Positions 9,077 to 26,143 of a DNA stretch of 26,143 nt are shown here, piece by piece. This DNA comes from an uncultured archaeon (lineage in GTDB: Archaea > Asgardarchaeota > Lokiarchaeia > Sigyniarchaeales > Promethearchaeaceae). The stretch covers positions 34,702 to 60,844 of the forward strand of contig CAYRPF010000009.1 of the NCBI GenBank assembly GCA_964426185.1, written 5' to 3'. Within the stretch, counting starts at the first letter, position 1; each line of letters begins with the position of its first letter. Both the position numbers and the translations under genes were made by a program. The notes under the pieces were generated by a model. The model was not told the origin of the DNA. It saw only the letters and a program-made list of their open reading frames with translations, and did not search any database.

Positions 9077-9269
9077 AATCTTTTTTTCGAATTTTTCTTC
9101 TATTATTGAAATTCTTAAATAACATTCTTGCTTTATTTAAATAGAAACGGTAAGAACAGATATTGCCCCGATCGAGCAGCTTATAAGATAAAGTCTGTTA
9201 TGATTTTACAAAAATCGGTCAAATTTGGGCGATATTTCAATCTATAGGGAATAATTGGAGAAAAGTAGG

Positions 9270-10061
9270 ATGTCACACGCACGGGGTGGACCCAAAGGGA
9301 ATTTCGATTTGGGGAAATATATTATTGTCAAATTAGAAAAAGCCAATCGAAACTTTGAAATGATTGCGGATCCGAATGAGGCGTGGAAAGCAAAACAAAT
9401 CATCAAGAAATTACTGCAAAAAGAACCTGAACATCAGCTCCAAGTTGAGGAAATATTAAATAATTCCGATATTGATTTGGAAAGCATTTTTCCAACATAT
9501 GATTTCTTCTTAAATGTTAAAAAAGGAGATCGCGTTACTGAAGCAGATTTAGAAAATGCTTTTGCCACTACTGATCCTCGCACTATAGCAGCCTATTTTC
9601 TGATAGATGGTGATTTTGCTTGGACCAAAGCCCAGCGTGATCAATGGTTAGAGAAAAAACGGAAGCAAATTATCAACATTTTAGCTCGAAATTCGATAAA
9701 TCCCCAAACAAAGCGTCCTCATCCCCCCAATCGTATTGAAAAAGCCTTAGAAGAAGCACGAGTATCTATTGATATCAATAAACCAGCAGAAGAACAAATT
9801 GATGCAATTGTAAAACGAATACAAACCGTTATCCCCATTCGGATTGAAACTATTCAGATGGCTGTGAAAATACCAGCAGAATATGCTGCGAAAGCCTATA
9901 ATACAGTGGAGCAATATGCTCAAGTCAAACAATCAGAATGGCAAACGGACGGATCTTGGATAGGTATGATTTCCTTACCTGCTGGATTACAGATGGAATT
10001 GTTAGATAAATTAAATAAATTGACTCACGGACGGATGCAGAGTAAATTAATCCAGAAATAA
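9270..10061 (+). CDS. sbds: Ribosome maturation factor SBDS/Sdo1
   Basis: NFEMIADP, INPQTKRPHPPNRIEKALEEA, IPI, LPAG...KLNKLTHG; position between psmA and rrp4. ATG at 9270 preferred over TTG at 9255. Confidence 0.95.
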   Translation: MSHARGGPKGNFDLGKYIIVKLEKANRNFEMIADPNEAWKAKQIIKKLLQKEPEHQLQVEEILNNSDIDLESIFPTYDFFLNVKKGDRVTEADLENAFATTDPRTIAAYFLIDGDFAWTKAQRDQWLEKKRKQIINILARNSINPQTKRPHPPNRIEKALEEARVSIDINKPAEEQIDAIVKRIQTVIPIRIETIQMAVKIPAEYAAKAYNTVEQYAQVKQSEWQTDGSWIGMISLPAGLQMELLDKLNKLTHGRMQSKLIQK

Positions 10062-10324
10062 TTATCACTGGTTTCATTTCATTCTCGTGATAGTTCTTGT
10101 GAGTAGCTTTGACAAAAAAATAGGTGAAAGCTAACACACCAAGCAGGCTGTGATGACCTCATACCACTTTTCCTATTTCTTCCCGTTCAATAAAAATATA
10201 AAAAAAATCTAAATGCGGTCTATTACCATCATAGGAGCTTGACAACTGATTAATCGCTGATTGTCAACTTCAAATTTTGAAGATAAATAGACGTATTAAG
10301 AAAAAACAAACACAGTGAACCTAT

Positions 10325-11071
10325 ATGTCCGCGGAGAATAAACAAATACGCGAAATCGTTACTCCAGGTCAAGTAATTGCCTCTGATCCCGAGTTAATGG
10401 CTGGAAGAGGGGCGATAAGAGAAGCAAATGGGGATATCGTCTCTGTTTTCGTTGGATTGAAAGAAATTCGGGGAAAATATGTGAATGTAGTCCCTTTAAA
10501 TGGATTGTACAACCCTCAAATTGGAGATAAAGTCATTGGCCGAGTGATTGCAAAAACTCCTGTGAAATTTTTACTGGATATCAATTCCAAATTTTTAGGC
10601 ATTCTTAAACCATCTGATGCCTTTAAACGTTCTCATCGTACTCGAGGATATCCCAAAACCATGGGCACTTATCGACTCCCTCGGGAAAATGATATGGATA
10701 AGTTGAAAATGGGTGATATGCTAATTTGTAAAGTTCTTTCAGGATCACGCACAGAAGAACCCACTTTAACTAGTTTAGGTCAAGAATTAGGATTGATCAC
10801 AGAAGGTTTAGTTATTGCAATTGCTTCGACTAAAATCCCCCGAGTAATCGGAAAAAAGGGGAGTATGATTGCACTTTTGAAAAATTTGTTACATTGTAAA
10901 ATTTTTGTTGCTCAGAATGGGCGAATCTGGATACACGGTCGAAATCCAGAAAGCGAACGGTTATTAATTGAAGTAATTTATAAAATAGAACGTGAAGCTC
11001 ACACGACCGGCTTAACCGATCGAGTAAAAGCTTATATTATTAAAGAAAAGAAAAATAGAGGTATCAAATAA
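10325..11071 (+). CDS. rrp4: Exosome RNA-binding cap subunit Rrp4 (S1 + KH)
   Basis: IVTPGQ, YNPQIGDKVIG (S1), KIPRVIGKKGSMI (KH GxxG), VAQNGRIWI, EREAHTTGLTDRV. Confidence 0.96.
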   Translation: MSAENKQIREIVTPGQVIASDPELMAGRGAIREANGDIVSVFVGLKEIRGKYVNVVPLNGLYNPQIGDKVIGRVIAKTPVKFLLDINSKFLGILKPSDAFKRSHRTRGYPKTMGTYRLPRENDMDKLKMGDMLICKVLSGSRTEEPTLTSLGQELGLITEGLVIAIASTKIPRVIGKKGSMIALLKNLLHCKIFVAQNGRIWIHGRNPESERLLIEVIYKIEREAHTTGLTDRVKAYIIKEKKNRGIK

Positions 11072-11073
11072 CA

Positions 11074-12153
11074 ATGCCAATTTTAGTACCTGAACCTCAT
11101 GATGAGGTATGCTTTCGAGAAGACGGAAAAAGGTTAGACGGGCGCGCTGTTGATGAATTGCGCCCTTTTTCTTGCGAAGTTGGGGTTATAAAAAATGCAC
11201 AAGGCTCTGCACTTGTTCGACATGGAAAAAATCTGATTTATGCTGCTATTTACGGACCACGGGAAGTTCATCCCCGCCATTTAGCACGACCAGATCGTGG
11301 TATATTACGAGTCTATTATAGGATGGCTACTTTTTCGGTTCATGAGAGAAAAAGTCCTGCTCCGAATCGACGTGAAAACGAAATTTCTAAAGTAATTCGG
11401 GAGGCATTAGAACCAGTATTATTTTTAGAAGCCTATCCTGATTCTCAAATTGAAGTATATATAGAAGTAATTGCCGCCGATGGAGGTACTAGATGTGCTA
11501 GTACTACTGCTGCATCCTTGGCTTTAGCAGATGCTGGAATTCCCATGAAAAGTATGGTGGTAGGTGTGGCTGCAGGAAAAGCCCAAGGTAAGGTCCTTCT
11601 GGACTTAGGTGATAAAGAAGATAAGGTGGGACAAGCTGATATTCCATGTGTAGTGGTGATGAAAGATAAATCGATTTCACTTCTACAATTTGATGGAGAA
11701 ATGACTTTGGAAGAAATGAAACTCGGCTTTGAATACGTTCTTAAAGGAGCGGAAATCATTTATCAGAAACAATTAGAAGCATTACGTGAAAAATATAATA
11801 AAATTTCACGCCAAGCTGAAATTGAAGATGCAGAATTAAGCAAGGAAACTCCTAAAGAAGAAAAAACAGCATCAGAATCTACAGATACTGCGGTTTCTCC
11901 CGAATCTTCTGATATATTTAAGAGTGATGTGGAAGCAGAATCTGCTGAAAATACCAGATCTGCCGAAATTAATGAAACTCCTGAAGCATCTGAGACCCCC
12001 TCAACTGAAGGATCCGAAACAAAAACATCCCAGGAAGATGTTTCTTCCGTAGGTAAAGAAGCAAAAGAAGAAAATACACTTTCTGAAGAATCGGCTCCAT
12101 CTGAAGTACCCCCCCAAGCCGGTGAGGACAATCCCACAGGAGATGATAAATAA
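11074..12153 (+). CDS. rrp41: Exosome catalytic subunit Rrp41 with long acidic C-terminal extension
   Basis: RLDGRAVDELRP, YGPREVHPRHL, YRMATFSVHERK, ADGGTRCA, LLDLGDKED...ADIP. Confidence 0.96.
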   Translation: MPILVPEPHDEVCFREDGKRLDGRAVDELRPFSCEVGVIKNAQGSALVRHGKNLIYAAIYGPREVHPRHLARPDRGILRVYYRMATFSVHERKSPAPNRRENEISKVIREALEPVLFLEAYPDSQIEVYIEVIAADGGTRCASTTAASLALADAGIPMKSMVVGVAAGKAQGKVLLDLGDKEDKVGQADIPCVVVMKDKSISLLQFDGEMTLEEMKLGFEYVLKGAEIIYQKQLEALREKYNKISRQAEIEDAELSKETPKEEKTASESTDTAVSPESSDIFKSDVEAESAENTRSAEINETPEASETPSTEGSETKTSQEDVSSVGKEAKEENTLSEESAPSEVPPQAGEDNPTGDDK

Positions 12154-12983
12154 TGATGGATATTAACGATGTTGTTAGCAATTTAGAACGAAATTACATC
12201 TTAAAATTATTAAAACAAGGCAAGCGAATTGACGGTCGCGGACTTTTTGAATATAGAGAGGTTAAAATAAAAACGGGATTTATTCCCAAAGCGGAAGGTT
12301 CAGCTGATGTCTTTTTAGGTGATACTCGCGTTATGTGCGGGGTAAAATATGATATTGGAGCACCATTCTCAGATAATCCCGACAAAGGGGTATGCACTGT
12401 AATGACAGAATATGTTCCAATTGCTTCCCCTATGTTTGAACCCGGACGACCTGATGAAGTTGCTATTCAATTAGCACGAGTAGTTGATCGTGGTATTCGC
12501 CATACTAATTGCATTGATTATAAGAAACTCTGCATTAAGGAAGGAGAATATGTCTACATTCTGTTTGTAGATTGTTATATGATGGATTATTTCGGTAATT
12601 TAACTGATGCTTCTGCCATTGCAGCGATTGCAGCATTATTAAACACAAATTTACCCGGTGCTAAATTGAATGAAAAGGGTGAACCTGAATGGGATGGAAC
12701 ATATGCACCATTGACGATCTACGAAATTCCGTTAAGTATTAGTTTTGGAAAAGTAGGCGATGTGATTTTCGTCGATCCTAATTTATCGGAAGAAATGGTG
12801 TTAGATGGTTCTATTGCATTTGCTGTAGACGAGAAGAAGCAAGTAACTTCTATTCAGAAATATGGAAGTGCTACTTGGACTGTAAATGAAATAATGGAAA
12901 CATCGAAGAAAGCCATTGAAATTGCTGATGAATTACGAGCAAAATTGAAATTACGCCAACATGTTCAACAATCGAATTCATAA
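12153..12983 (+). CDS. rrp42: Exosome subunit Rrp42
   Basis: RIDGRGLFEYR, KAEGSA, FEPGRPDE, LARVVDRGIR, VDPNLSEE; TAATG overlap with rrp41. Confidence 0.96.
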   Translation: MMDINDVVSNLERNYILKLLKQGKRIDGRGLFEYREVKIKTGFIPKAEGSADVFLGDTRVMCGVKYDIGAPFSDNPDKGVCTVMTEYVPIASPMFEPGRPDEVAIQLARVVDRGIRHTNCIDYKKLCIKEGEYVYILFVDCYMMDYFGNLTDASAIAAIAALLNTNLPGAKLNEKGEPEWDGTYAPLTIYEIPLSISFGKVGDVIFVDPNLSEEMVLDGSIAFAVDEKKQVTSIQKYGSATWTVNEIMETSKKAIEIADELRAKLKLRQHVQQSNS

Positions 12984-14426: not shown

Positions 14427-15977
14427 TCAAATGATTTTAGTTATGATTTCTCGCAATTGATTTAATGAAAAAGGTTTTTTTAAGACGTCTATAAATCCGT
14501 ATTTTGATGGATTGGCCATAATTGGGTCGTTGGAATACCCGCTTGCAACAATGGCGCGAATATCTGGATCGAAAAATCTCAAATCTTGAATAACTTCTTT
14601 TCCACCTAAACCTCCTGGAATAGTGAGATCTAAAATTACAAGATCGAATTTGTGGTTATTATTGAATGCTTCTTTATACAATTGAATCGTATCTTCTCCA
14701 TTTTCGGTAAAAACCGTTTCATAGTGCAGATGTTGCAAGAGTTTTTTCAAAATTCGCTGAATTGCTTTATCATCTTCTAGAATTAAGATTGATTGCTTTG
14801 TTTCTGCTTTCTTGTTATCTTTTTTTAATTCCTTCTTTGAGGTCTTTAGGTGTTTTTTTAAAAGTGGAGGTTCTTCTTGTACTGGAAGATATACAAGAAA
14901 TTCGGAGTATGAATTATTCGGGTCCTCGGATGTATGAAATCCAATATAACCGTTGTGGTTTTTAATAATAGAATAGACTGCGGCCAATCCCAAACCATAT
15001 CTTGATTTTTTTGTGGAAAAATACGGTTCAAAAATATTGGTTTGTATCTTTTCGGGAATTCCTGTTCCTTCATCTCTGATAATGATTTCAATATATTTTC
15101 CTGGTGGAATTAAAATTCGGTTTAAGTTGCCAAAAGGCTTAAGAACTTGATTGTTAAATTCTCTATTATAAAATTTTATGAAAATTTCGCCCCCGTCTGG
15201 CATGGCTTGATCGGCATTCATAACTAGGTTTGAAATGACTTGTGAGATTTGGTTAGGATCCACAACTACAGGCCAGAGATTATGGTCAAAATCTAAAGTG
15301 CATCTTGATTTCGAACCTCTAAGAGAAAAGATCGCAGTTTCAGTAATAATCGGGGTAAGATCTACTTTAGATTTTATTGGTTGACCACCAGTGGCGAATG
15401 TTAGTAATTGTGTGGTTAGATTTTGTGCCCTGTGAATAGATTTCTCTGCATCTTTCAAGGTTGCTTTAATAAATTCCAAATCATTTTCTTCCAAAGCTAA
15501 AGTTATATTTCCTAAAAGAGCTGTAAGAATATTATTAAAATCATGCGCAATCCCCCCAGCTAACCTACCAATGCTCTCTAATTTTTCTTGATTAAATTGG
15601 ATTTGTGTCATTTGTTTAAGTTCGCTGGGCTTGAGGCAGAGTAAAATTGTAGAATTAGAAGTGTTTGTATCTAATCTATTTAAAGTAGCTTGAAACGGAA
15701 TTATATTCCCAGAAAAGTCTATAAGTTCTATTTTGAATGATACGGTTTCGATTTCACCTAGTTGAATGGATTTGAATAAACTCTTTTTATTTAAATGACT
15801 GTTCGGGGAAATAATTTCAAATATATTCTTACCTATTAGTTTCTCTCTAGTTGCCTCTAACTTCTTCAAACCTTCTGAATTAATACCAAGAATTTCGTGA
15901 GATTCTAAATCAAATAAGATATGGATTACCGAAGAATCATTATTAGGAGATGTTTTATCTTGCAGAATTGAAGAAAT
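14427..15977 (-). CDS. Hybrid sensor histidine kinase (PAS-HisKA-HATPase-REC), CckA/NtrB-like; start uncertain
   Basis: H-box LAGGIAHDFNNIL, N-box QVISNLVMNADQAM, G1 DEGTGI, F-box FEPYFSTK, G2 GLGL; receiver ILILEDD...LVILDLTIPG...KKPF. Frame stays open to 15992 and adds the PAS N-terminus. Confidence 0.9.
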   Translation of the reverse strand: MSSILQDKTSPNNDSSVIHILFDLESHEILGINSEGLKKLEATREKLIGKNIFEIISPNSHLNKKSLFKSIQLGEIETVSFKIELIDFSGNIIPFQATLNRLDTNTSNSTILLCLKPSELKQMTQIQFNQEKLESIGRLAGGIAHDFNNILTALLGNITLALEENDLEFIKATLKDAEKSIHRAQNLTTQLLTFATGGQPIKSKVDLTPIITETAIFSLRGSKSRCTLDFDHNLWPVVVDPNQISQVISNLVMNADQAMPDGGEIFIKFYNREFNNQVLKPFGNLNRILIPPGKYIEIIIRDEGTGIPEKIQTNIFEPYFSTKKSRYGLGLAAVYSIIKNHNGYIGFHTSEDPNNSYSEFLVYLPVQEEPPLLKKHLKTSKKELKKDNKKAETKQSILILEDDKAIQRILKKLLQHLHYETVFTENGEDTIQLYKEAFNNNHKFDLVILDLTIPGGLGGKEVIQDLRFFDPDIRAIVASGYSNDPIMANPSKYGFIDVLKKPFSLNQLREIITKII

Positions 15978-16135: not shown

Positions 16136-16945
16136 CTAAGAATTTAATTCTTCAAAATCTCCGATTTCTAAATATTCCTCCATACTTTTTGATTCAAGCA
16201 GTAAATAACCCGAATCGTTTATTCCCTTCAATTTAAAACCTTTTCCCTCTTTACCTTCAATTTTTGTGCCCAAATTATAAAGATTTTGATTGTATTCTTT
16301 TTTTAGTTGATTTTTGGTCTTTGAAGAAAAATTTGTAATTACATTTTTCCATATCTCCGCCAGAATGGTCGGTATATTCTTTTTTGCAAAATTTTGAATA
16401 TTTACATGATAATCAATCAAATCAGAAACTGAAACGGTGGTATTTTTTAAATTTTCAGGAAAATTAGTCGAAGAATTATTAAAATTAATACCCATTCCAA
16501 TTAATAAAATATGTTTTTCGGGAGTAGAAATAACTTCTAATAATATTCCACCGAGTTTACGAAGCTTATTGATTCTATTTTCTGAGATAATAACTAAATC
16601 GTTTGGCCATTTAATTTTTACAGGAATGTGAAATTCTTCAGAAATCATTCTCTTAAGAATGCTTACTACAGCGTAATGTAGAAAGATAAATTGCTGTGTT
16701 GAAAGAATATTGGGAAGTGGAATGGCTAAAGTCCCCCAAAAACCTCCTTCGGGAGAAAACCAATCATCATTTTTTCTTCCCCTACCATGATGCTGAATTC
16801 TCGCGGATAAAAACACTGCTTTTTCGTTCGAATCTTGAATAAATGGAATGATTGCATCTTGGGTTGAATTTACTTTATCTAAGAAGATATATCGAAGTGG
16901 AGGAGGCGGTAAACGTGAAAGATGTGAAGGAAGTGAAGGATTCAC
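16136..16945 (-). CDS. birA: Biotin-protein ligase (group I, no HTH)
   Basis: VNSTQD, QHHGRGR...WFSPEGG, IKWPNDL, KLGGIL, IGMGIN. Confidence 0.92.
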   Translation of the reverse strand: MNPSLPSHLSRLPPPPLRYIFLDKVNSTQDAIIPFIQDSNEKAVFLSARIQHHGRGRKNDDWFSPEGGFWGTLAIPLPNILSTQQFIFLHYAVVSILKRMISEEFHIPVKIKWPNDLVIISENRINKLRKLGGILLEVISTPEKHILLIGMGINFNNSSTNFPENLKNTTVSVSDLIDYHVNIQNFAKKNIPTILAEIWKNVITNFSSKTKNQLKKEYNQNLYNLGTKIEGKEGKGFKLKGINDSGYLLLESKSMEEYLEIGDFEELNS

Positions 16946-17147: not shown

Positions 17148-18725
17148 ATGATTTTAAAAAAAACTAAAAAGGAACTAGATCCATCCTTGGTTCAGCTTTC
17201 TTCCTTAGATTCACTTAGAAGACAGTCTTTAAACGGTGGAGGCTCCCAAAAAATCGAAAACCAGCATAAAAAGGGAAAATTGACCGCACGTGAAAGGATT
17301 GAACTGTTAGTCGATCCTGGTACATTTATAGAAATCGATGAATTTGTGATGCATCGGGCCATCAAATTCGACATGCAGCAGCAAAAATATCTTGGGGATG
17401 GTGTGGTAACTGGATTTGGACTGATTCACGGGCGAAAAGTGTTCATTTATAGCCAAGACTTCACCGTAATGGGGGGTAGTTTGGGAAATGCACATGCTAG
17501 TAAAATTTCAAAGATTATGGACTTAGCCATAAAAAACGGATGCCCTATAATAGGACTTCTCGATTCTGGGGGCGCGCGCATTCAAGAGGGTGTGGATTCA
17601 TTGGCCGGTTTTGGCGAAATTTTTCATCGTAATGTGCAAGCCTCCGGTGTGGTGCCACAAATTTCGGTCATTCTGGGCTCATGCGCTGGAGGGGCCGTTT
17701 ATAGCCCGGCTTTAACGGATTTCATCATTATGGGTGGGAATCATTCATATATGTTCGTAACTGGTCCGCAAGTTGTTGAATCTGTAACTAATGAAAAAGT
17801 TTCCTTTGAGGAATTGGGTGGCAAAGAAATACACGGAAAAACTTCAGGTGTTGCTCATTTGACTACTGCCACTGAAGAACAAGCATTAGACTTAGTAAAA
17901 ATCTTACTTTCTTATCTGCCCTCAAATAATCTGATGGATCCTCCCATAAATCCAGATTTTAATGAACCAGAAAATAGTGCCAATTTGAATAATCTCATTC
18001 CCAAAAAAGAGAATGAACCCTATGATATGATTATAGTAATTAAAGGAATTGTAGATGAAAATTCATTTTTCGAAATATTTCCACAATACGCGCCTAATAT
18101 TATTACTGGTTTCGCTCGATTGGAAGGAAATTCCATTGGGATTATTGCAAATCAACCCTTATCCTTAGGAGGGGCAATTGACTTTCATGCTTCTGATAAA
18201 AGTGGACGATTCATTCGATTTTGTGATGCATTTAATATCCCGTTAATTACTCTGGTTGATGTCCCAGGTTTTATGCCTGGAGTCAATCAAGAACATGCCG
18301 GCATCATTCGTCATGGTGCAAAAATGATTTATGCCTATGCAGAAGCTAGCGTTCCTAAAATTACGATTATTACTAGAAAAGCATACGGAGGTGCTTATAT
18401 TGTAATGGCTTCTAAACATCTAGGTGCTGATATGAATTTTGCTTGGAATACGGCTCAAATTGCCGTAATGGGAGCTGAAGGTGCCTGTAAAATTCTCTAC
18501 CGAAAAAAGATCAAAGCTTCACCTAATCCTAAAATTGCTTTGCAAAATTATATTACGGCTTACAAGCAAGAATTTTCTAATCCATATCAAGTTGCAGAAT
18601 TAGGTTATGTGGATAAGGTAATTTATCCCTCAGAGACACGTTCAATAGTTATTAATTCACTTAAATTTCTCACAAATAAACGTGAAAATGTTCCAAAACG
18701 CAAACATGGTGTGTTTCCAGTCTAA
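17148..18725 (+). CDS. Acyl-CoA carboxylase carboxyltransferase subunit (PccB/AccD/MmdA family)
   Basis: GKLTARERI, GDGVVTG, QDFTVMGGSLG, DSGGARIQEG, GSCAGGAVYSPALTDF, DVPGFMPG, RKAYGGAY, AVMGAEGA, KRKHG. Confidence 0.96.
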   Translation: MILKKTKKELDPSLVQLSSLDSLRRQSLNGGGSQKIENQHKKGKLTARERIELLVDPGTFIEIDEFVMHRAIKFDMQQQKYLGDGVVTGFGLIHGRKVFIYSQDFTVMGGSLGNAHASKISKIMDLAIKNGCPIIGLLDSGGARIQEGVDSLAGFGEIFHRNVQASGVVPQISVILGSCAGGAVYSPALTDFIIMGGNHSYMFVTGPQVVESVTNEKVSFEELGGKEIHGKTSGVAHLTTATEEQALDLVKILLSYLPSNNLMDPPINPDFNEPENSANLNNLIPKKENEPYDMIIVIKGIVDENSFFEIFPQYAPNIITGFARLEGNSIGIIANQPLSLGGAIDFHASDKSGRFIRFCDAFNIPLITLVDVPGFMPGVNQEHAGIIRHGAKMIYAYAEASVPKITIITRKAYGGAYIVMASKHLGADMNFAWNTAQIAVMGAEGACKILYRKKIKASPNPKIALQNYITAYKQEFSNPYQVAELGYVDKVIYPSETRSIVINSLKFLTNKRENVPKRKHGVFPV

Positions 18726-18776: not shown

Positions 18777-21700
18777 ATGAAAAAAATACATGAAATTCAA
18801 AAACTTTTGGGTAATTCTGTTCCAATTTGGGGATATAATCCTCAAGGGTTGAAAAATATGGATATTTTGTTGAGTATCTCGAGAAATAGTGGAATTGGGT
18901 TATTTAATACCGCAACCTTTTCAATCCAAGATATTAATGAAATCTTAATTCAAATCTCTCAAAAATTAGATGAAACAGCATATTGGGGTATTTTAATACA
19001 TGAAGATAGTATAATTCCACGTCTTATATTTCCATCATCTAGAATAATTGTTATTTGCTCGTTTTCTCCTTCTTCCGCCAATCTTTCATTATTACAGCAA
19101 AAAACAGTGATGATTGGGGCCGAGGTACTTACAACAATTGAAGCTAAGGAAAAATCAGGTTGGGCTGATTTTTTCCTAGTTCGGGGAAATGAAGCAGGAG
19201 GTGTCGTGAGTAACATTAATTCTTTCATTCAAATTCAAGAATTTCACAAAATGGGATATAGTTTTATTATTGAAGGCGGTTTTGGTATATTTAATGTTGG
19301 AGCTGCCCTTGTTGGAGGTGCATTCGGAGTAGTCTTTGAGTCTCAATTGTATTTATTGAAGGAATCACCTCTTTCTTCTGCATACAAATCATACTTAGTT
19401 TCACTTCAAGAGAACGATTTCTATTTGGCAGTCGAAAATGAAATGTTTAATTATCGTTTAATAGGAAAATTAGCAAACAAATCGATTCGAAAAATAAAAG
19501 CTCAAGAGAAAGCATTCTATCAATATCTCATCAGTCAAGATGAAAATATGTCTCGTAATTTTTTCGAACAGCATTTTAATGCTTATCTTGATAAGATTTT
19601 CTCAGAAAAATCGCGTATTCCTGACTGGACTTCAGACAATCCCAAACATGCTTTTATGCCTTGTGATCATGGTATAATTTTTGCTCGATATGTAGCAGAA
19701 TGTTATGAAGACATTGCTGGATTTATTCAAGGCTTGAAAAACCTGATCAAACACCAATACAATCAGATTAAAACTAATTGGCCTTTTCAAGAATGTAGCC
19801 CAATCGCGCAATTATTAAATATCAAATATCCAATAATCCAAGGCCCAATGGCGAATATAACTGAATCTTTGGAATATGCTCAAGTTATTGCAGAAAACGG
19901 CGCATTGCCAACATTTGCACTTGGTGGTTTAATGGATCATGAAGCAGATCTGTTATTGCAGAAAGTTTCGCAATCTCCCTTACAAAACAAATCTTATATG
20001 GCAGGAATAATCGGGTTAGAAGTAGTTAAAAAGCGTCGAAATGCTCAATTAGAATCAATCAAAAAATATAAAGTTCCTTTTACCTTAATTGCAGCTGGCT
20101 CGGTTGAGCTGGCCAAACAAGTCATTCGGCAAGGGGAACGGGTGTTTTTACATACTCCAGCTCTGTCTATGTTTCGAGAAGCAATAAAAAATGGAATAGA
20201 ATTTATGATTTTAGAGGGCAGTGAATGTGGTGGTCATATTGGGACTCTTTCATCTTGGGTTTTATGGGAAAACGTATTAGAATATTGTGTTCAAGAAAAA
20301 AGTAATCTACCAGAGCGAATGAATGTTATTTTTGCAGGTGGCATTATCGATTCCAATAGTAGCACTATGGTTGCAATGTTACTTGGGGAACATCTTGATC
20401 AAATAAATCCTGCTATTCAGATGGGAACTGCATATTTATTCACTCAAGAAATAGTTACCTCAAAAGCTCTTTCTTACGTTTATCAAAATCTATTGTTAGA
20501 TCATCAAACAACAAGAGTTATTGGAGCAACCGTTAACACCAGAGCCAGGGTTATACCTTCTTTATTTACTTATCTTACAATTAAAAAAGAATTTGAACGT
20601 ATTACTCAAAATTTACCCATTTCGAAGCGTAAAGATTTATATGAGAAAGATAATCTGGGTGCACTTCGAATTGCCGCTCAAGGTGAAATTTGGAATGCTA
20701 AACATGTTCCTGGGACTGGAACCACCCAATTTCTCCCGATTTCTCCAGAAAAGCAGAAAATATCAGGGGCATTTATGACTGGAGAGATTATTTCCCTTCG
20801 TAATTCGGTCGTTTCAGTTAAGAATCTCCATTATGATATCGTAAAGGGGGGATTTCATCACCTTTCGGACGAATTCTTAAAAAGATTTACTTCATCTACT
20901 AAAACGCCCCATATTATCCAAAATAGAGAAATAATTGCCAATCAAGAAATTTCTATTGATTCTCGTGTAGCAATTGTGGGATTGGGGGGTGTATTTCCTG
21001 ATTCTAATAATATCACTGAATTTTGGCAGAACATTTTAATGAGAAAGTATTCAATATCTGAAGTTCCCTCAGATCGTTGGGATGCAGAAATTTATTATAG
21101 TTCCAATAAAAATGAGCCAGATAAAACGTATACAAAAATCGGGGGTTTCATCAAAAATTTTCAATTTAAACCAATAAAATTTAGAATTCCTCCACAAATG
21201 GCTGCAAGAATGGATCCTGTACAAAAATGGGCTCTAACAGCAGCAAAAGAAGCATTGTTAGATGCAAAATTCCCCGTTGATGGTAAAAAACCCATTAATT
21301 TAGCCGTAATTTTAGGAAATTCTTTAGGAGGAGAAATTCAACGGACTAATGACAAAAGAGTATTGATTCAAGAAATTAAACATATTTTTCATCAAGCCAA
21401 ACAACTTAATATGGCAACAACCTCAAGTCTCGTAGAATTGCAAACATATCTTGAAAATGAGCTGATCAAAGATATACCTCCAATAAATGAAGATACAATG
21501 CCAGGTGAATTGTCAAATATTATTGCCGGAAGAATTTGTAATATATTTAATTTAAATGGTAAAAATCTAACCACTGATGCTGCTTGTGCTTCAAGCCTGG
21601 CCGCATTGGATACTGCAGTTAAAGGTTTATTATTTGGAGATTATGATGCAGTTTTAGCAGGTGGTGCCGATAGATCCATGGATCCTGCAGTATTTATCAA

Positions 21701-24700
21701 ATTTTCTAAAATTGGGGCGTTATCTGCTAAAAAATCATGCCCTTTTGATGCTGAAGCTGATGGCTTTGTCATGGGAGAAGGCGCCGGTTTTGTGGTTTTA
21801 AAACGATTATCTGATGCAATTCGCGATAATGATAAAATTTATGCTGTGATTAGAGGAATAGGGTCATCATCTGATGGCCGAGGCAAGGGAATAACTGCTC
21901 CGAATCCCCAAGGTCAACAAAATGCCATTTTACGTGCTTATAATGCTGCAAAAATATCTATCGATGATATCCAATATATTGAATGTCATGGAACATCAAC
22001 AGTTATTGGAGATGCTGCTGAATTAAAGGTACTTCAAGATATTCTTAAAAATAAAGGTGGAAATCAAAAAATTGCAATCGGTTCAGTTAAAAGTCAAATA
22101 GGTCATTTGAAAAGTGCTGCCGCGATTGCCGCATTAATCAAAACGAGTTTGGCGTTGTATCATAAAACTATCCCTCCGTCTGTAAATTTTAATACACCCA
22201 ATCCAAAAATTGATTGGGAAAAAGCACCCTTTTATGTAAATACTCAAACCCAGCCTTGGGAACTTTCTGAAAGTTCAATTAGAAGGGCGGGTGTTTCAGC
22301 ATTCGGATTCGGAGGTACGAATTTTCATGTAGTTTTGGAAGAATATTCCCCGCAAAACTTAGATTTTCCAAAAATATCTCTGCCGGTTTACCATCTAAAC
22401 GAAAATTTTCCTTCCTTATCTCAACCTATAAATAATTTTTCAGAAATCAACGAGGATCTCTCTTTAGTTTTGATGTTCAGTGGACAAGGAAGCCAATTTG
22501 TTGGTATGGGGAAGGAATTATATCAAAAAATACCCGTAATTCGTGAAGTGTTAGATCAAGCAAATAATATTTCTCAAAATTTTGGTAATTTTGATCTTTT
22601 AAAAATTATGTTTGGGGATCCTAAGCGCTCGTTGGAAGAAAATCAGAAGATTTTAACACAGACACAGTTTACTCAACCTGCAATCTTTAGCTTAGAAATT
22701 GCTTTATATCGTTATCTCACCCAAAAAGGTCTCTCTCCAGGAATTGTTGCAGGGCATAGTTTAGGTGAATATTCTGCTCTAGTTGCTTCTGGTGTAATTG
22801 ATTTTGAACATGCAATGAAAGCTGTGATTATTCGGGGAAAAGCAATGAGCGAAGCGAGTTCAGAAATTTCATGTGGAATGGCAGCTTTATTATGTTCACC
22901 TGAACAAGCAGGCAAAATTATATCCCAAATCAATAAGGGCTTTGTGTCGATTTCTAATTATAATTCTCCCCGTCAGACTGTTATCTCTGGTGATTTGGAA
23001 GGAATTAATGAAACATTGAAATTATGTCAAACAGCTAAAATTACTGCTATACAACTAAAGGTTTCTCAAGCATTTCATTCAAAATTCGTGGCAGGTGCTG
23101 GTTCGAAATTGGCGGAATTTTTAAATTCTATTCCATTTAAGGCTCCCCGTATTCCAATTTTTAGTAATGTTTTAGGAAGTCAATATCCTCAAGATCCTCA
23201 ACGAATTAAAGATATTTTGGTGGATCAAATCACTTCGCCGGTTCGGTGGACTCAAGAAATTGAGCAAATTTACAATAAAGGTGGTCGAAGGTTTGTAGAA
23301 GTTGGACCTAAGAAAGCTTTATTCTATTTTGCAAACGAAATTCTTAGGAAAGAAAAGAACACAAAGTATTGGTTTACATTGTCTCCTAAAAATCCTGAAG
23401 TTGAACATCTTCAACAAACTATTGAGTCTGTTCTGAAAGAGGAAAATAAAATCCTTAAAAAGAAAAATTACAGAATTGATGCAAGTTTCACTTCACAAGC
23501 ATTCGATAGCAGAAGAGGTAATCCTTCAAAATCACCCCTTAGCATCTTAGAATCTGATAAGGAACTAAAAAAAATAATTAATCAACCTAATTTTGCGGAT
23601 TTTATCCGACATCAGAAAGATATTTTAATTCCTCTGTTGAAGTCCAACTTTAAGCAATATAATAAGATTCAAGTGTTGGAACAACAGCAAAGGCTAAAGC
23701 ATGAATCTCTAAACAAAATTTCATCAATTCCTTTGGGAATTACTGGAGTAGGTATTGGCCTACCGGGGAAAAATCGAAAAGTTTTCGATGATTCTAATAT
23801 TCAAGCAATTCTTCGGGGAGATAATTTTATTGAGCCTATTGATGAAAGATTAAAATATGACATTCTCGAGAAAAATATCGTTCGATTGAATAAAACTTCG
23901 ACAGGGCGCGCCTCTTTTATTGAGATTAATGACATTTCTCAAGTTATCCATCTTGCTGGTCAGATCGGGGAATTTTCTCCAGAAAAGGATTTCTTATTGA
24001 ATGAAAAATTACTCCATGCTTTAGATATTACTTCAAAATTAGCCATTGGGGCTGGATTTGAAGCGTTGAGAGATGCTGGAATCCCCTTGGTAAAATCTGA
24101 ACTGATAACTTCTACTGGAAAGAAAATTTCGGGTGATTGGGCACTTCCCGAAGAATTACAAAAGAATACAGGAGTAGTTTTTGCTTCTGCATTTCCTGGT
24201 TATGATAATTTTGCAAAGGATTTAACAACTCAACTAACTCAAAAATTTGAAAATCAAACCAAGAATCTTATTATTTCCAAGGTTAATCAACTTTTAGAAA
24301 AAATCGAACATCCCGTAATTAAAAAAGACTTACGCAAGTGGTTTGAAAAAGAAAAACAATTACTAACAGGAAAACAGCAAGATCTTCAAAAATTCAACAA
24401 ATCATTCCTATTTAGAATTCTTTCTATGGGGCATTCTCAATTTGCCCAGATAATAAAAGCTAAAGGACCAAACACTCAAATTAATGCTGCATGTGCAACT
24501 ACAACACAAGCATTTGCAATCGCCGAAGATTGGATTAAAACAGGAAGATGCAATCGTGTTATAATAATTTCAGGAGATTGTCCGACTACTAATGATCTAT
24601 TCCCTTGGTTGGGTGCAGGTTTTGTTGCAAGTGGCGCTGGTACAATCAAGCAAACATTAGAAGAAGCGGCTTTACCGTTTGGTAAAGGGCGAAATGGTTT

Positions 24701-26143
24701 GATCGCAGGAGCTGGTGCAACAGGTTTTGTAGTTGAACACCCTTCTGAGGCAAAACGAAGAGGTATAAAACCGATTGTCGATTTATTGGGGACTCATATA
24801 AGTAATAGCGCATATCATGGCTCACGTTTAGATAAGCATGATATTTGTTCTGCGATGGAACTTTTCATTTCTAAAATGGAAAATACATATGGAATTTCGA
24901 AATCTGAAATCGCACAACAAGGAATGTTCGTAAGTCATGAAACTTATACTCCTGCGCGGGGTGGTAGTTCTGAATCTGAATTGGAGGCACTTGCCTTCAC
25001 ATTTGGCTCTCAATCACATAACATTTTAATTGTTAACACTAAAGGTTTCACAGGTCACACGATGGGTGTAGGGATTGAAGAGGCAGTTGCGATAAAATCT
25101 ATTGAATTCGGGCAAATTCCTCCAATTGCAAATATTGAAAAATTAGATCCAAAATTTGAAGGTTTTAATTTTTCGAGAGGGGTTCAAGATAGAAAGAAAT
25201 ATGCTATAAGATTTGCTGCTGGATTTGGTTCACAACTTGCCATTTTATTATTTAGGACAAATACACCTGTTAATCGAAAGGATAATATAAAATACAAGTC
25301 TTGGTTAAATTCTATCGCAAGGTCAACTGAGTTGTACTTAGATGGAAGAATTTTAAAGATTAAATCTACAAAAGCTTCAAGAGAATTTCAAAAAAAGGCT
25401 ATAAAATTTTCTTCTTTGAATGTTCAAGAAAAAAATCTGCCCGTCCTTCCCTTTTTGTTAGAAATCATATCCAAAACAACAGGTTATGATGTCTCTGATC
25501 TTGATTCCAAGTATGATCTTGAAGAAGATTTGGGTATCGATACCATTAAGCAAGCGGAGATCTTTGGGCAAATCCGCGAAAAATGGCAAATACCAGAAAA
25601 TATGGATGTGAACCTTGCGGATTTCAAGACAATTGAAGACATTGTTTCGTTCATTTCAAAATTTAAGAATATAGATAGTGAAACTTCCGAAACATCGCAA
25701 GTTGTGAATCAAATTTCTTCTCCAAAAACTGAGATAGAATCGATAGAAACAAGTGTTCAAAAAATTATTGCAGAAATCACCGGATATGATGTGGAAGATC
25801 TTGAATTAGGATTTGATTTAGAAGAAGATTTGGGCATCGATACCATTAAGCAAGCGGAGATCTTTGGACAGATTCGTGAAAAGTGGCAGATACCAGAAAA
25901 TGCTGAAGTGAATCTTGCAGATTTCAGAACAATTAAAGATATTGTTTCGTTCATTTCAAAATTGAAGAATTTAGATGACGAAAGCTCCAAGACGACCCAA
26001 GTTATAAATCAAAATTCTTCTTCAAAAAATGGAATTAAATCGATAGAAACAAGTATTCAAAAAATTATTTCAGAAATCACCGGATATAATGTGGAAGATC
26101 TTGAATTAGGATTTGATTTAGAAGAAGATTTGGGCATCGATAC
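18777..26143 (+). CDS. Type I FAS/PKS-like megasynthase, 3'-truncated by window edge (>=2455 aa): ER0-ER-KS1-MAT-KS2-ACP-ACP-ACP...
   Basis: Manual translation from ATG 18777 shows no stop to the end of the window. FabK/NMO-like barrel 1 (RGNEAGGVV, ~18800-19750). Barrel 2 (YPIIQGPM, EGSECGGH, FAGGI, QMGTAYLFT, ~19800-20850). KS1 (VAIVG, TDAACASS, ECHGTST, KSQIGHLK, GFGGTNFH, ~20964-22346). MAT (FSGQGSQ, GHSLGE, QAFHS, PVRW, FVEVGP, ~22464-23350). KS2 (NAACATT, VSHETYTP, KGFTGHTMG, GFGSQ, ~23727-25256). ACPs (DLEEDLGIDTIKQAE). Confidence 0.95.
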   Translation, partial: MKKIHEIQKLLGNSVPIWGYNPQGLKNMDILLSISRNSGIGLFNTATFSIQDINEILIQISQKLDETAYWGILIHEDSIIPRLIFPSSRIIVICSFSPSSANLSLLQQKTVMIGAEVLTTIEAKEKSGWADFFLVRGNEAGGVVSNINSFIQIQEFHKMGYSFIIEGGFGIFNVGAALVGGAFGVVFESQLYLLKESPLSSAYKSYLVSLQENDFYLAVENEMFNYRLIGKLANKSIRKIKAQEKAFYQYLISQDENMSRNFFEQHFNAYLDKIFSEKSRIPDWTSDNPKHAFMPCDHGIIFARYVAECYEDIAGFIQGLKNLIKHQYNQIKTNWPFQECSPIAQLLNIKYPIIQGPMANITESLEYAQVIAENGALPTFALGGLMDHEADLLLQKVSQSPLQNKSYMAGIIGLEVVKKRRNAQLESIKKYKVPFTLIAAGSVELAKQVIRQGERVFLHTPALSMFREAIKNGIEFMILEGSECGGHIGTLSSWVLWENVLEYCVQEKSNLPERMNVIFAGGIIDSNSSTMVAMLLGEHLDQINPAIQMGTAYLFTQEIVTSKALSYVYQNLLLDHQTTRVIGATVNTRARVIPSLFTYLTIKKEFERITQNLPISKRKDLYEKDNLGALRIAAQGEIWNAKHVPGTGTTQFLPISPEKQKISGAFMTGEIISLRNSVVSVKNLHYDIVKGGFHHLSDEFLKRFTSSTKTPHIIQNREIIANQEISIDSRVAIVGLGGVFPDSNNITEFWQNILMRKYSISEVPSDRWDAEIYYSSNKNEPDKTYTKIGGFIKNFQFKPIKFRIPPQMAARMDPVQKWALTAAKEALLDAKFPVDGKKPINLAVILGNSLGGEIQRTNDKRVLIQEIKHIFHQAKQLNMATTSSLVELQTYLENELIKDIPPINEDTMPGELSNIIAGRICNIFNLNGKNLTTDAACASSLAALDTAVKGLLFGDYDAVLAGGADRSMDPAVFIKFSKIGALSAKKSCPFDAEADGFVMGEGAGFVVLKRLSDAIRDNDKIYAVIRGIGSSSDGRGKGITAPNPQGQQNAILRAYNAAKISIDDIQYIECHGTSTVIGDAAELKVLQDILKNKGGNQKIAIGSVKSQIGHLKSAAAIAALIKTSLALYHKTIPPSVNFNTPNPKIDWEKAPFYVNTQTQPWELSESSIRRAGVSAFGFGGTNFHVVLEEYSPQNLDFPKISLPVYHLNENFPSLSQPINNFSEINEDLSLVLMFSGQGSQFVGMGKELYQKIPVIREVLDQANNISQNFGNFDLLKIMFGDPKRSLEENQKILTQTQFTQPAIFSLEIALYRYLTQKGLSPGIVAGHSLGEYSALVASGVIDFEHAMKAVIIRGKAMSEASSEISCGMAALLCSPEQAGKIISQINKGFVSISNYNSPRQTVISGDLEGINETLKLCQTAKITAIQLKVSQAFHSKFVAGAGSKLAEFLNSIPFKAPRIPIFSNVLGSQYPQDPQRIKDILVDQITSPVRWTQEIEQIYNKGGRRFVEVGPKKALFYFANEILRKEKNTKYWFTLSPKNPEVEHLQQTIESVLKEENKILKKKNYRIDASFTSQAFDSRRGNPSKSPLSILESDKELKKIINQPNFADFIRHQKDILIPLLKSNFKQYNKIQVLEQQQRLKHESLNKISSIPLGITGVGIGLPGKNRKVFDDSNIQAILRGDNFIEPIDERLKYDILEKNIVRLNKTSTGRASFIEINDISQVIHLAGQIGEFSPEKDFLLNEKLLHALDITSKLAIGAGFEALRDAGIPLVKSELITSTGKKISGDWALPEELQKNTGVVFASAFPGYDNFAKDLTTQLTQKFENQTKNLIISKVNQLLEKIEHPVIKKDLRKWFEKEKQLLTGKQQDLQKFNKSFLFRILSMGHSQFAQIIKAKGPNTQINAACATTTQAFAIAEDWIKTGRCNRVIIISGDCPTTNDLFPWLGAGFVASGAGTIKQTLEEAALPFGKGRNGLIAGAGATGFVVEHPSEAKRRGIKPIVDLLGTHISNSAYHGSRLDKHDICSAMELFISKMENTYGISKSEIAQQGMFVSHETYTPARGGSSESELEALAFTFGSQSHNILIVNTKGFTGHTMGVGIEEAVAIKSIEFGQIPPIANIEKLDPKFEGFNFSRGVQDRKKYAIRFAAGFGSQLAILLFRTNTPVNRKDNIKYKSWLNSIARSTELYLDGRILKIKSTKASREFQKKAIKFSSLNVQEKNLPVLPFLLEIISKTTGYDVSDLDSKYDLEEDLGIDTIKQAEIFGQIREKWQIPENMDVNLADFKTIEDIVSFISKFKNIDSETSETSQVVNQISSPKTEIESIETSVQKIIAEITGYDVEDLELGFDLEEDLGIDTIKQAEIFGQIREKWQIPENAEVNLADFRTIKDIVSFISKLKNLDDESSKTTQVINQNSSSKNGIKSIETSIQKIISEITGYNVEDLELGFDLEEDLGID
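25441..26143 (+). repeat. Tandem 300-bp ACP-encoding repeats (2 complete + 1 partial)
   Basis: GAAGAAGATTTGGGYATCGATAC recurs at 25521, 25821 and 26121, an exact 300-nt period; units 2 and 3 are nearly identical where they overlap. Confidence 0.95.

Follow-up and report, generated by a model that had tools for sequence, protein, structure and literature searches.

The question raised by this locus is why one polypeptide should carry two apparently active ketosynthase (KS) domains, one on either side of a single acyltransferase (AT). To our knowledge, a single KS serves all cycles in most iterative type I synthases, polyunsaturated fatty acid (PUFA) synthases being the known exception. The locus lies at the 3' end of a 26,143-nucleotide stretch of DNA (the window) from an uncultured archaeon of the Lokiarchaeia, where an open reading frame (ORF) of 2455 amino acids (aa) occupies positions 18777..26141 of the + strand and is still open at the contig end, within tandem repeats of the acyl carrier protein (ACP). 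The window holds the first two thirds (N-terminal side) of a type I fatty-acid/polyketide megasynthase that is iterative and depends on ACPs, rather than the single module described in the sequence-only reading of this DNA. Our comparison of its two ketosynthase sequences, KS1 and KS2, makes it likely that both are working decarboxylative enzymes, which would share one malonyl-type AT and one ACP array and divide the elongation cycles between them by substrate.

The remainder of the enzyme is encoded on contig C101 (L003:3-3404), which opens inside an ACP repeat and continues in one 1133-aa frame through a ketoreductase (KR), a polyketide synthase (PKS)-type dehydratase (DH) and a phosphopantetheinyl transferase (PPTase), the last being an ACPS domain (L003 aa 1016-1120) at the C-terminus. 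A 2029-aa protein from another assembly (P0004), of which 1425 aa are identical to the window protein, spans both contigs and contains four ACPs. Because P0004 joins the window to C101, the full enzyme is ER-ER'-KS1-AT-KS2-ACP4-KR-DH-PPTase (ER, enoyl reductase), with a length of ~3,683 aa. The domains of the window ORF were called with Pfam and NCBIfam models (Table 1); the Pfam NMO match (aa 344-593) corresponds to the second ER repeat, and the first copy is weaker. In the carrier motif LGxD-Thr, the phosphopantetheine-accepting Ser is replaced by Thr, both in the window ACPs (25455-26141) and at L003:3-200. This Thr motif is family-wide: it extends to almost every ACP of 120 homologs and to 239 of 243 ACPs from loci of named genomes.

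The megasynthase represents, in Asgard archaea, the Type R secondary-lipid synthase known from bacteria. Type R was catalogued in 2011 by Shulse and Allen in Koribacter, Solibacter, Elusimicrobium and Roseiflexus (PLoS One 6:e20146, PMC3098273), with the order KS-MAT-CLF-ACP(3-6)-KR (CLF, chain-length factor) in a single pfaA homolog, with products listed as uncharacterised, and with an acetyl-CoA carboxylase gene noted in the Koribacter cluster. Together, the window and C101 read KS1-AT-KS2-ACP4-KR-DH, in agreement with the Type R order of KS, MAT, a second KS-like domain, three to six ACPs and KR. The PPTase is encoded with the synthase, in the same ORF here and by a gene of its own further downstream in many bacterial loci, and an acetyl-CoA carboxylase gene often stands alongside. 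Furthermore, KS2 is 45-48% identical to its counterparts in Korobacteraceae, Bryobacterales and Anaerolineae/Chloroflexota loci of the same architecture, and Elusimicrobiota fragments match as well; the homology is shown through these same lineages rather than through the strains named in 2011 themselves. Two differences are found. The second domain, labelled a CLF in 2011, has a full catalytic set here, and the archaeal form adds an N-terminal FabK-type ER didomain and a C-terminal PPTase, whereas the bacterial loci carry acyl-CoA dehydrogenase (ACAD)-EtfAB-Fe/S genes. The KS-AT-KS layout, which had been taken for a rarity, is shared by a whole family, the Type R catalogued in 2011, and is no singular oddity. 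No report of a Type R product or of its chemistry was found in the literature searched, so the layout does not coincide with that of a characterised synthase of known product, the match that the sequence-only reading had named as fatal to its proposal. Literature searches on PKS or fatty-acid synthase (FAS) in Asgard or Marine Group II archaea brought up no publication on the KS-AT-KS layout apart from the 2011 catalogue and the mention in passing of a 'novel PKS' in a Heimdallarchaeota metagenome-assembled genome (MAG; PMC7472256).

The two ketosynthases belong to different lineages. The catalytic set of KS1 comprises Cys937 (21585-21587, in DAACASS), His1071 (21987-21989, in HGTST), Lys1105 and His1110 (22104-22106), and the best PDB matches of KS1 are type I and trans-AT PKS KS, Pks13 and the PfaC KS (6RIW, 258 bits). 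PDB 7ZMA (517 bits) was rejected as a special relative of KS1, as its score sums two stretches of one 1,690-aa PKS chain. The catalytic set of KS2 comprises Cys1906 (24492-24494, in NAACATT), His2054 (24936-24938, in HETYTPARGGS), Lys2089 and His2094 (25056-25058, in TKGFTGHTMG), and the domain also holds Thr-x-Thr and GFG. The positions of the Cys and His residues and the motifs around them, together with FASAFPG and NSAYHG, had been placed correctly in the sequence-only reading. Its description of the two domains as unrelated holds for their lineages only, since they have the same fold and 23% identity over the N-terminal half (E 2e-5).

For the fold, KS2 was analysed alone (P0002, aa 1655-2175). 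Pfam models match it weakly (36 and 18 bits), and on TIGR03150 (FabF/KAS II) it scores 121.6 bits, below the cut-off of 493.75, as a domain embedded in a megasynthase. HMMER nevertheless aligned it to FabF structures with all four catalytic residues (Cys, two His, Lys) in register, and the top 60 PDB sequences found with a KS2 profile are FabF, FabB, KasA and type II PKS KS only. Consistent with this, an AlphaFold2 model built with 30 homologs (pLDDT 90.1, pTM 0.90) retrieves FabF structures throughout the Foldseek list (TM 0.82-0.87 on the target). Against representative structures, the model scores Z 44-46 with act KS, AntD, ishigamide KS and FabF, Z 36-40 with type I KS, 38.1 with SalC, 32.8 with the PfaC KS-CLF (6RIW) and 23.7 with OleA (4kti). 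These comparisons identify KS2 as a ketosynthase of type II-like character within a type I chain, with FabF/KAS II and type II PKS KS-alpha as its nearest relatives in fold and sequence; Cys-His-His-Lys, Thr-x-Thr and the GFG loop are common to all of them. It differs from FabF in the residues at D265, N404, P272 and I108, in the motif HETYTPARGGS and, usually, in a 50-aa helical hairpin. In the model, the helices of this hairpin span residues 155-188 and 192-210 (KS2-domain numbering), after FASAFPG and directly after the back-gate Phe discussed below. The sequence-only reading had noticed the insertion at this place but had measured it at ~65 rather than ~50 aa, and had compared it with insertions in fungal and mycobacterial FAS KS domains. 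Our structural comparison lends little support to the latter: mycobacterial FAS (Z 32.6) and yeast FAS (Z 31.5) rank well below type II KS and type I PKS KS, although ~20 more residues align. Moreover, the hairpin varies by lineage and gives way to a FabF-length segment in 42 of 118 KS2 domains, so it is not essential to the core role of KS2.

Conservation was compared in 106 KS1 and 118 KS2 domains cut from full-length homologs (46-72% identity). Cys-His-His-Lys is invariant in both sets, the exceptions being one Met and one gap at the Lys and one gap at the second His, and it is likewise kept in 78/78 KS2 domains from named genomes; the HETYTP motif is invariant in the KS2 homologs. The mean pairwise identity is 57.0% for KS2 versus 55.4% for KS1, and the invariant columns number 67/465 versus 59/474. 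The pairwise divergences of KS1 and KS2 correlate at r = 0.90, the pattern expected as two parts of one gene evolve together under constraint. KS2 was fused in long ago and has been co-evolving with KS1 since. The loss of the active-site Cys that marks a CLF is not seen, the Cys being present in 118/118 and 78/78 KS2 domains. With an invariant catalytic set and conservation equal to that of KS1, KS2 is not a CLF, a relic or a purely structural domain. Both ketosynthases apparently remain catalytically competent under equal constraint, as the sequence-only reading had supposed.

The residues lining the acyl channel set the two domains apart. Gate positions were read from an alignment of KS2 and KS1 with bona fide FabF from two bacterial genomes, against a review of FabF gating (PMC9006962). 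According to this review, FabF has two gating loops, and its open state needs the D265-N404 pair, described there as "totally conserved" save for type II polyketone KS, together with the Pro of loop 2 and a side pocket at G310 (G310M blocks). Along the bound acyl chain, the back gate I108-F202 sits near C7-C8, and an I108F enzyme elongates mainly C6 to C8, longer acids being blocked (PMC9006962). The open-gate signature and the back-gate Ile are absent from KS2, which shows Ser for D265 (118/118), Leu for P272 (117/118), Leu, Val or Ile for N404 and Phe for I108 (117/118), each substitution thus standing in 117 or 118 of the 118 domains; the Phe at F202 is kept, and an invariant Arg-Gly-Gly is inserted at the G310 site. 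By comparison, KS1 keeps the FabF-type Asp, Pro and Asn in 106/106 homologs, has no insertion at G310, carries Met, Leu or Ser at I108 and retains the Phe at F202. In addition, two invariant residues, Glu401 and Arg407 (KS2-domain numbering), lie near the KS2 active site.

A division of labour between the two ketosynthases had been proposed in the sequence-only reading, and it has an experimentally established precedent in PUFA synthases, the two KS of which accept different acyl-ACP intermediates (PMC11962503); the priming split itself is what we infer here. In the mechanism that we favour, KS2 would make or accept the acetyl primer and run the first short-chain condensations, and KS1 would then extend medium and long chains. 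Because it has a Phe/Phe back gate and lacks the FabF open-gate apparatus, KS2 fits priming and short chains better than KS1 does, and the assignment of short chains to KS2 and long chains to KS1, read from the alignment, is probably the right way round. No other KS, AT, ACP or FabH was found in the genome (Pfam-model searches; completeness 92%), so that priming and every condensation would have to be intrinsic to the megasynthase, starting from malonyl units. Since an ER is fused, the product in the archaeon is probably a saturated fatty acyl chain. Several points weigh against this mechanism. The gate and back-gate arguments rest on the FabF alignment and on the generalisation of one review, another route for the acyl chain could be opened by the hairpin that adjoins the back-gate Phe, and the roles of KS1 and KS2 could be reversed. 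The Thr-for-Ser replacement in the ACPs may also mean that the carrier chemistry of the family itself is unusual. Finally, both KS of PUFA synthases accept C2 and C4, leaving no clean precedent for a split between priming and elongation (PMC11962503).

The strongest competitor is a role of KS2 as a chain-initiation or chain-length factor, which would only decarboxylate malonyl-ACP to the acetyl primer, or set the length as the partner of KS1, and would take no part in elongation. KS2 occupies the place annotated as CLF by Shulse and Allen (PMC3098273), its closed-gate features resemble those of type II PKS KS/CLF systems, and a genome with neither FabH nor a loading AT needs a primer generator. 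However, the active-site Cys is gone from the known CLF and KSQ domains, whereas KS2 keeps it along with His-His-Lys in 196/196 domains, and the strong constraint on the acyl-accepting Cys and the gate Phe argues for full ping-pong condensation. We regard such a role as unlikely.

Ranked just behind it, and likewise improbable, is an arrangement in which KS1 and KS2 of one chain pair as an intramolecular heterodimer with two different live active sites, instead of forming two homodimers. Downstream of a canonical AT, the polypeptide should run back to the vicinity of the KS. KS-fold enzymes are obligate dimers, and a second KS-like unit pairs with the first in PfaC (6RIW) and in type II PKS. 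Such pairing is made less likely by stand-alone KS2 paralogs of 537-561 aa, which must find their own dimer partner, by the placement of ACPs between KS1 and AT-KS2 in two loci (L024, L079), and by the separation of KS1-AT and KS2-ACP proteins in a third (L065).

It is far less probable that KS2 performs a terminal non-canonical reaction, either an OleA-like head-to-head Claisen condensation, as the sequence-only reading had suggested, or a cyclisation that off-loads the chain, with very long or branched lipids as the outcome. OleA-type enzymes have a FabH/thiolase-like fold, condense acyl chains without decarboxylation and lack the His-His-Lys set for malonyl. There is precedent for such chemistry on the KS fold, the KS-like bicyclase SalC being among the structural matches (Z 38.1), and the surroundings of the KS2 active site are unusual (the invariant Glu401 and Arg407). 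Yet OleA is distant (Z 23.7 against 44-46 for type II KS), KS2 keeps the Cys, the His-His-Lys used for malonyl decarboxylation, the Thr-x-Thr phosphopantetheine contacts and GFG, and a separate alpha/beta hydrolase after the gene is a candidate for release. A decaying or purely structural remnant, to which the weak Pfam scores (36 and 18 bits) and the altered HGTGT motif might point, is effectively refuted by 67 invariant columns, KS1-level conservation, and catalytic residues never lost across hundreds of species in at least eight phyla.

Table 1 Features of the megasynthase locus, key positions of KS2, and stand-alone KS2 paralogs; plain numbers are nucleotide positions in the window
Feature	Position	Strand	Remark
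Biotin protein ligase, BirA-like	16136..16945	-	Divergent from carboxyltransferase
Acyl-CoA carboxylase carboxyltransferase subunit (malonyl-CoA supply)	17148..18725	+	Directly upstream of megasynthase
N-terminal FMN-type ER region	18777..20678	+	Two FabK/PfaD/NMO-like repeats
KS1, type I/PfaA-like	20961..22358	+	Pfam/NCBIfam match aa 729-1194, strong
Malonyl-type AT	22467..23357	+	aa 1231-1527; GHSLGE and AFHS motifs
AT-KS2 linker, ~127 aa	23358..23738	+	No family match
KS2, FabF/type II-like, distinct 'HETYTP' class	23739..25259	+	Ketoacyl-synthase match weaker than that of KS1
KS2 back-gate Phe1806	24192..24194	+	F152 of domain; FabF I108
Helical hairpin insertion in KS2	24201..24368	+	aa 1809-1864; ~50 aa longer than FabF
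KS2 back-gate partner Phe1949	24621-24623	+	F295 of domain; FabF F202
KS2 gating loop 2, SAYHGSRL	24807..24830	+	Ser2011 for Asp265, Leu2018 for Pro272
KS2 HETYTPARGGS	24936..24968	+	Invariant Glu beside catalytic His; 3-residue insertion, invariant Arg-Gly-Gly, at Gly310 side-pocket site
KS2 gating loop 1, GFGSQL	25221..25238	+	Gate Phe kept; Asn404 replaced by Leu/Val/Ile
Tandem ACP repeats	25455..26141	+	Two complete, third cut at contig end; motif LGIDT
Stand-alone KS2 paralogs	L015:9971-11635; G009:C1, G166:C197, G098:C171, G154:C190		

Two other known systems bear comparison with the megasynthase. PUFA synthases (PfaA-D of marine bacteria and the thraustochytrid subunits) are likewise iterative, with tandem ACPs, a KS like the PfaA-like KS1, a FabK/PfaD-type ER and two active KS. 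They are distinct in that the second Pfa KS is type I-like, resides on a different subunit and has a CLF without Cys as its partner, and in that FabA-type DH domains are present; the second KS here is FabF-like and sits on the same chain, between AT and ACPs. Neither a CLF nor a FabA-type DH was found in the megasynthase, the tail of which contains only a PKS-type DH (PF21089). Furthermore, the megasynthase scores 772.6 bits on TIGR02813 (PfaA), below the cut-off of 1010.1, and the PfaC KS-CLF (6RIW) is not in the top 60 of the KS2 sequence profile search. The enediyne PKS (PKSE), with the order KS-AT-ACP-KR-DH-PPTase, is an iterative type I enzyme of a PUFA-related clade with a C-terminally fused PPTase. 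Unlike the megasynthase, it contains just one KS and one ACP, and it lacks an ER.

Long homologs number more than 100 and were found in Loki-/Promethearchaeota, Heimdall-, Hod-, Thor- and Kariarchaeota, in Thermoplasmatota and in a few bacteria. In a scan of one genome per species, relatives of KS2 occur in at least 488 species; among the matches listed, most are from Acidobacteriota, Chloroflexota, Actinomycetota and Myxococcota. Domain maps drawn for 80 related loci show KS1-AT-KS2-ACP(2-6)-KR-DH in nearly all of them, with the PPTase adjacent or fused, and among these loci the ER didomain is fused in Asgard archaea only. Variants of the order are found in two Anaerolineae loci (L024, L079), which read KS1-ACPn-AT-KS2-..., the ACPs having moved between KS1 and AT while AT and KS2 stay joined. 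A split form in Kineosporiaceae (L065) carries KS1-AT and KS2-ACP6-KR-DH on separate proteins. The stand-alone KS2 paralogs carry the same signature and occur besides the megasynthase in several Heimdall-group genomes; their existence marks KS2 as an autonomous enzyme type. No conserved neighbours of these paralogs were found in five genomes. In the complete genome of Ca. Heimdallarchaeum aukensis (L005:3166-15715), an ER-ER'-KS1-AT ORF is followed by a KS1-AT-KS2-ACP3-KR-DH-PPT ORF, which represents either a tandem duplication of KS1-AT or an assembly or frameshift artefact.

The bacterial loci have a context of their own. Upstream of the Type R genes in Ca. Sulfotelmatobacter (L011:1-21246) and in most others lie genes for a WS/DGAT, a CCG/4Fe-4S protein, EtfB, EtfA and an acyl-CoA dehydrogenase, and downstream lies a fused eukaryote-type acetyl-CoA carboxylase of 1904 aa. 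Of the 80 loci, 59 contain the ACAD cluster. These ACAD-Etf genes may constitute a trans enoyl reductase replacing the fused ER of Asgard archaea, with a wax-ester or triacylglycerol outlet. In an Anaerolineae MAG (Bellilinea sp., G004, L008), the two KS domains of the megasynthase were the only hits of a search with the fabF model; the Type R enzyme may be the primary FAS in this MAG as well.

Within the phylum of the source genome, KS2 is patchy, occurring in 30 of 201 sampled genomes. KS2 with the complete ACP-dependent synthase was found in 17 of the 21 sampled genomes of Heimdallarchaeaceae, the family of Ca. Heimdallarchaeum aukensis; KS2 was found in 6/7 genomes of another family and in 1/41 of the main family of the source genome's own order. 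In a quick maximum-likelihood tree rooted with FabF, archaeal KS2 forms one clade (SH-aLRT 100) that groups with Chloroflexota (97) inside the bacterial diversity. The tree suggests that archaeal KS2 was acquired from bacteria, a provisional indication given its long branches and distant outgroup.

The surroundings of the gene bear on substrate supply and product use. In addition to the carboxyltransferase gene in the window, C101 carries, after the PPTase, an alpha/beta hydrolase gene, and further an isopropylmalate/isocitrate dehydrogenase-like gene and genes for biotin carboxylase and a biotin carrier protein, so that those parts of the carboxylase which the window lacks sit next door. The genome holds three PlsC-type acyltransferase genes (C5, C6), possible users of the acyl product, and PlsY was not found in it (completeness 92%). 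Elsewhere in the window, the archaeal exosome superoperon SBDS-Rrp4-Rrp41-Rrp42 occupies 9255-12983, and a hybrid histidine kinase/response regulator gene lies at 14427-15869 on the - strand. The exosome genes, together with the naming of the nearest homologs, mark the source as an Asgard (Loki/Promethearchaeota) archaeon. The KS2 stretch was matched in DNA sequencing runs only, labelled hydrothermal vent, marine or sediment metagenome, with no RNA run listed.

Compared with the literature searched, three aspects are new: the so-called CLF of Type R appears, from its residues, to be a complete FabF-like KS that belongs to a distinct closed-gate class; the family is very widespread; and a self-contained version exists in Asgard and Thermoplasmatota archaea. 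A type II-derived KS is hard-wired between AT and ACPs in a megasynthase of hundreds of soil, sediment and marine lineages, and correcting the CLF label would alter how the Type R family is modelled, mined and engineered. More tentatively, and with clear reservation, we propose that the 'HETYTP' domains might be a distinct, unrecognised class of closed-gate, FabF-derived KS, a built-in engine for priming and short chains that would make Type R a self-sufficient FAS. It might even be the sole ACP-dependent FAS of Heimdall-group and some Loki-group Asgard archaea and of Thermoplasmatota, feeding PlsC-type acyltransferases. A 2024 preprint states that archaea lack FAS I, FAS II and ACP (10.1101/2024.07.05.601840), and the complete ACP-dependent synthase in 17/21 Heimdallarchaeaceae contrasts with this view. 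This occurrence bears on the 'lipid divide' and on the origin of eukaryotic acyl lipids, though the tree points to acquisition from bacteria. If the proposal is true, it would show concretely how archaea related to eukaryotes could come to make acyl lipids of the bacterial type.

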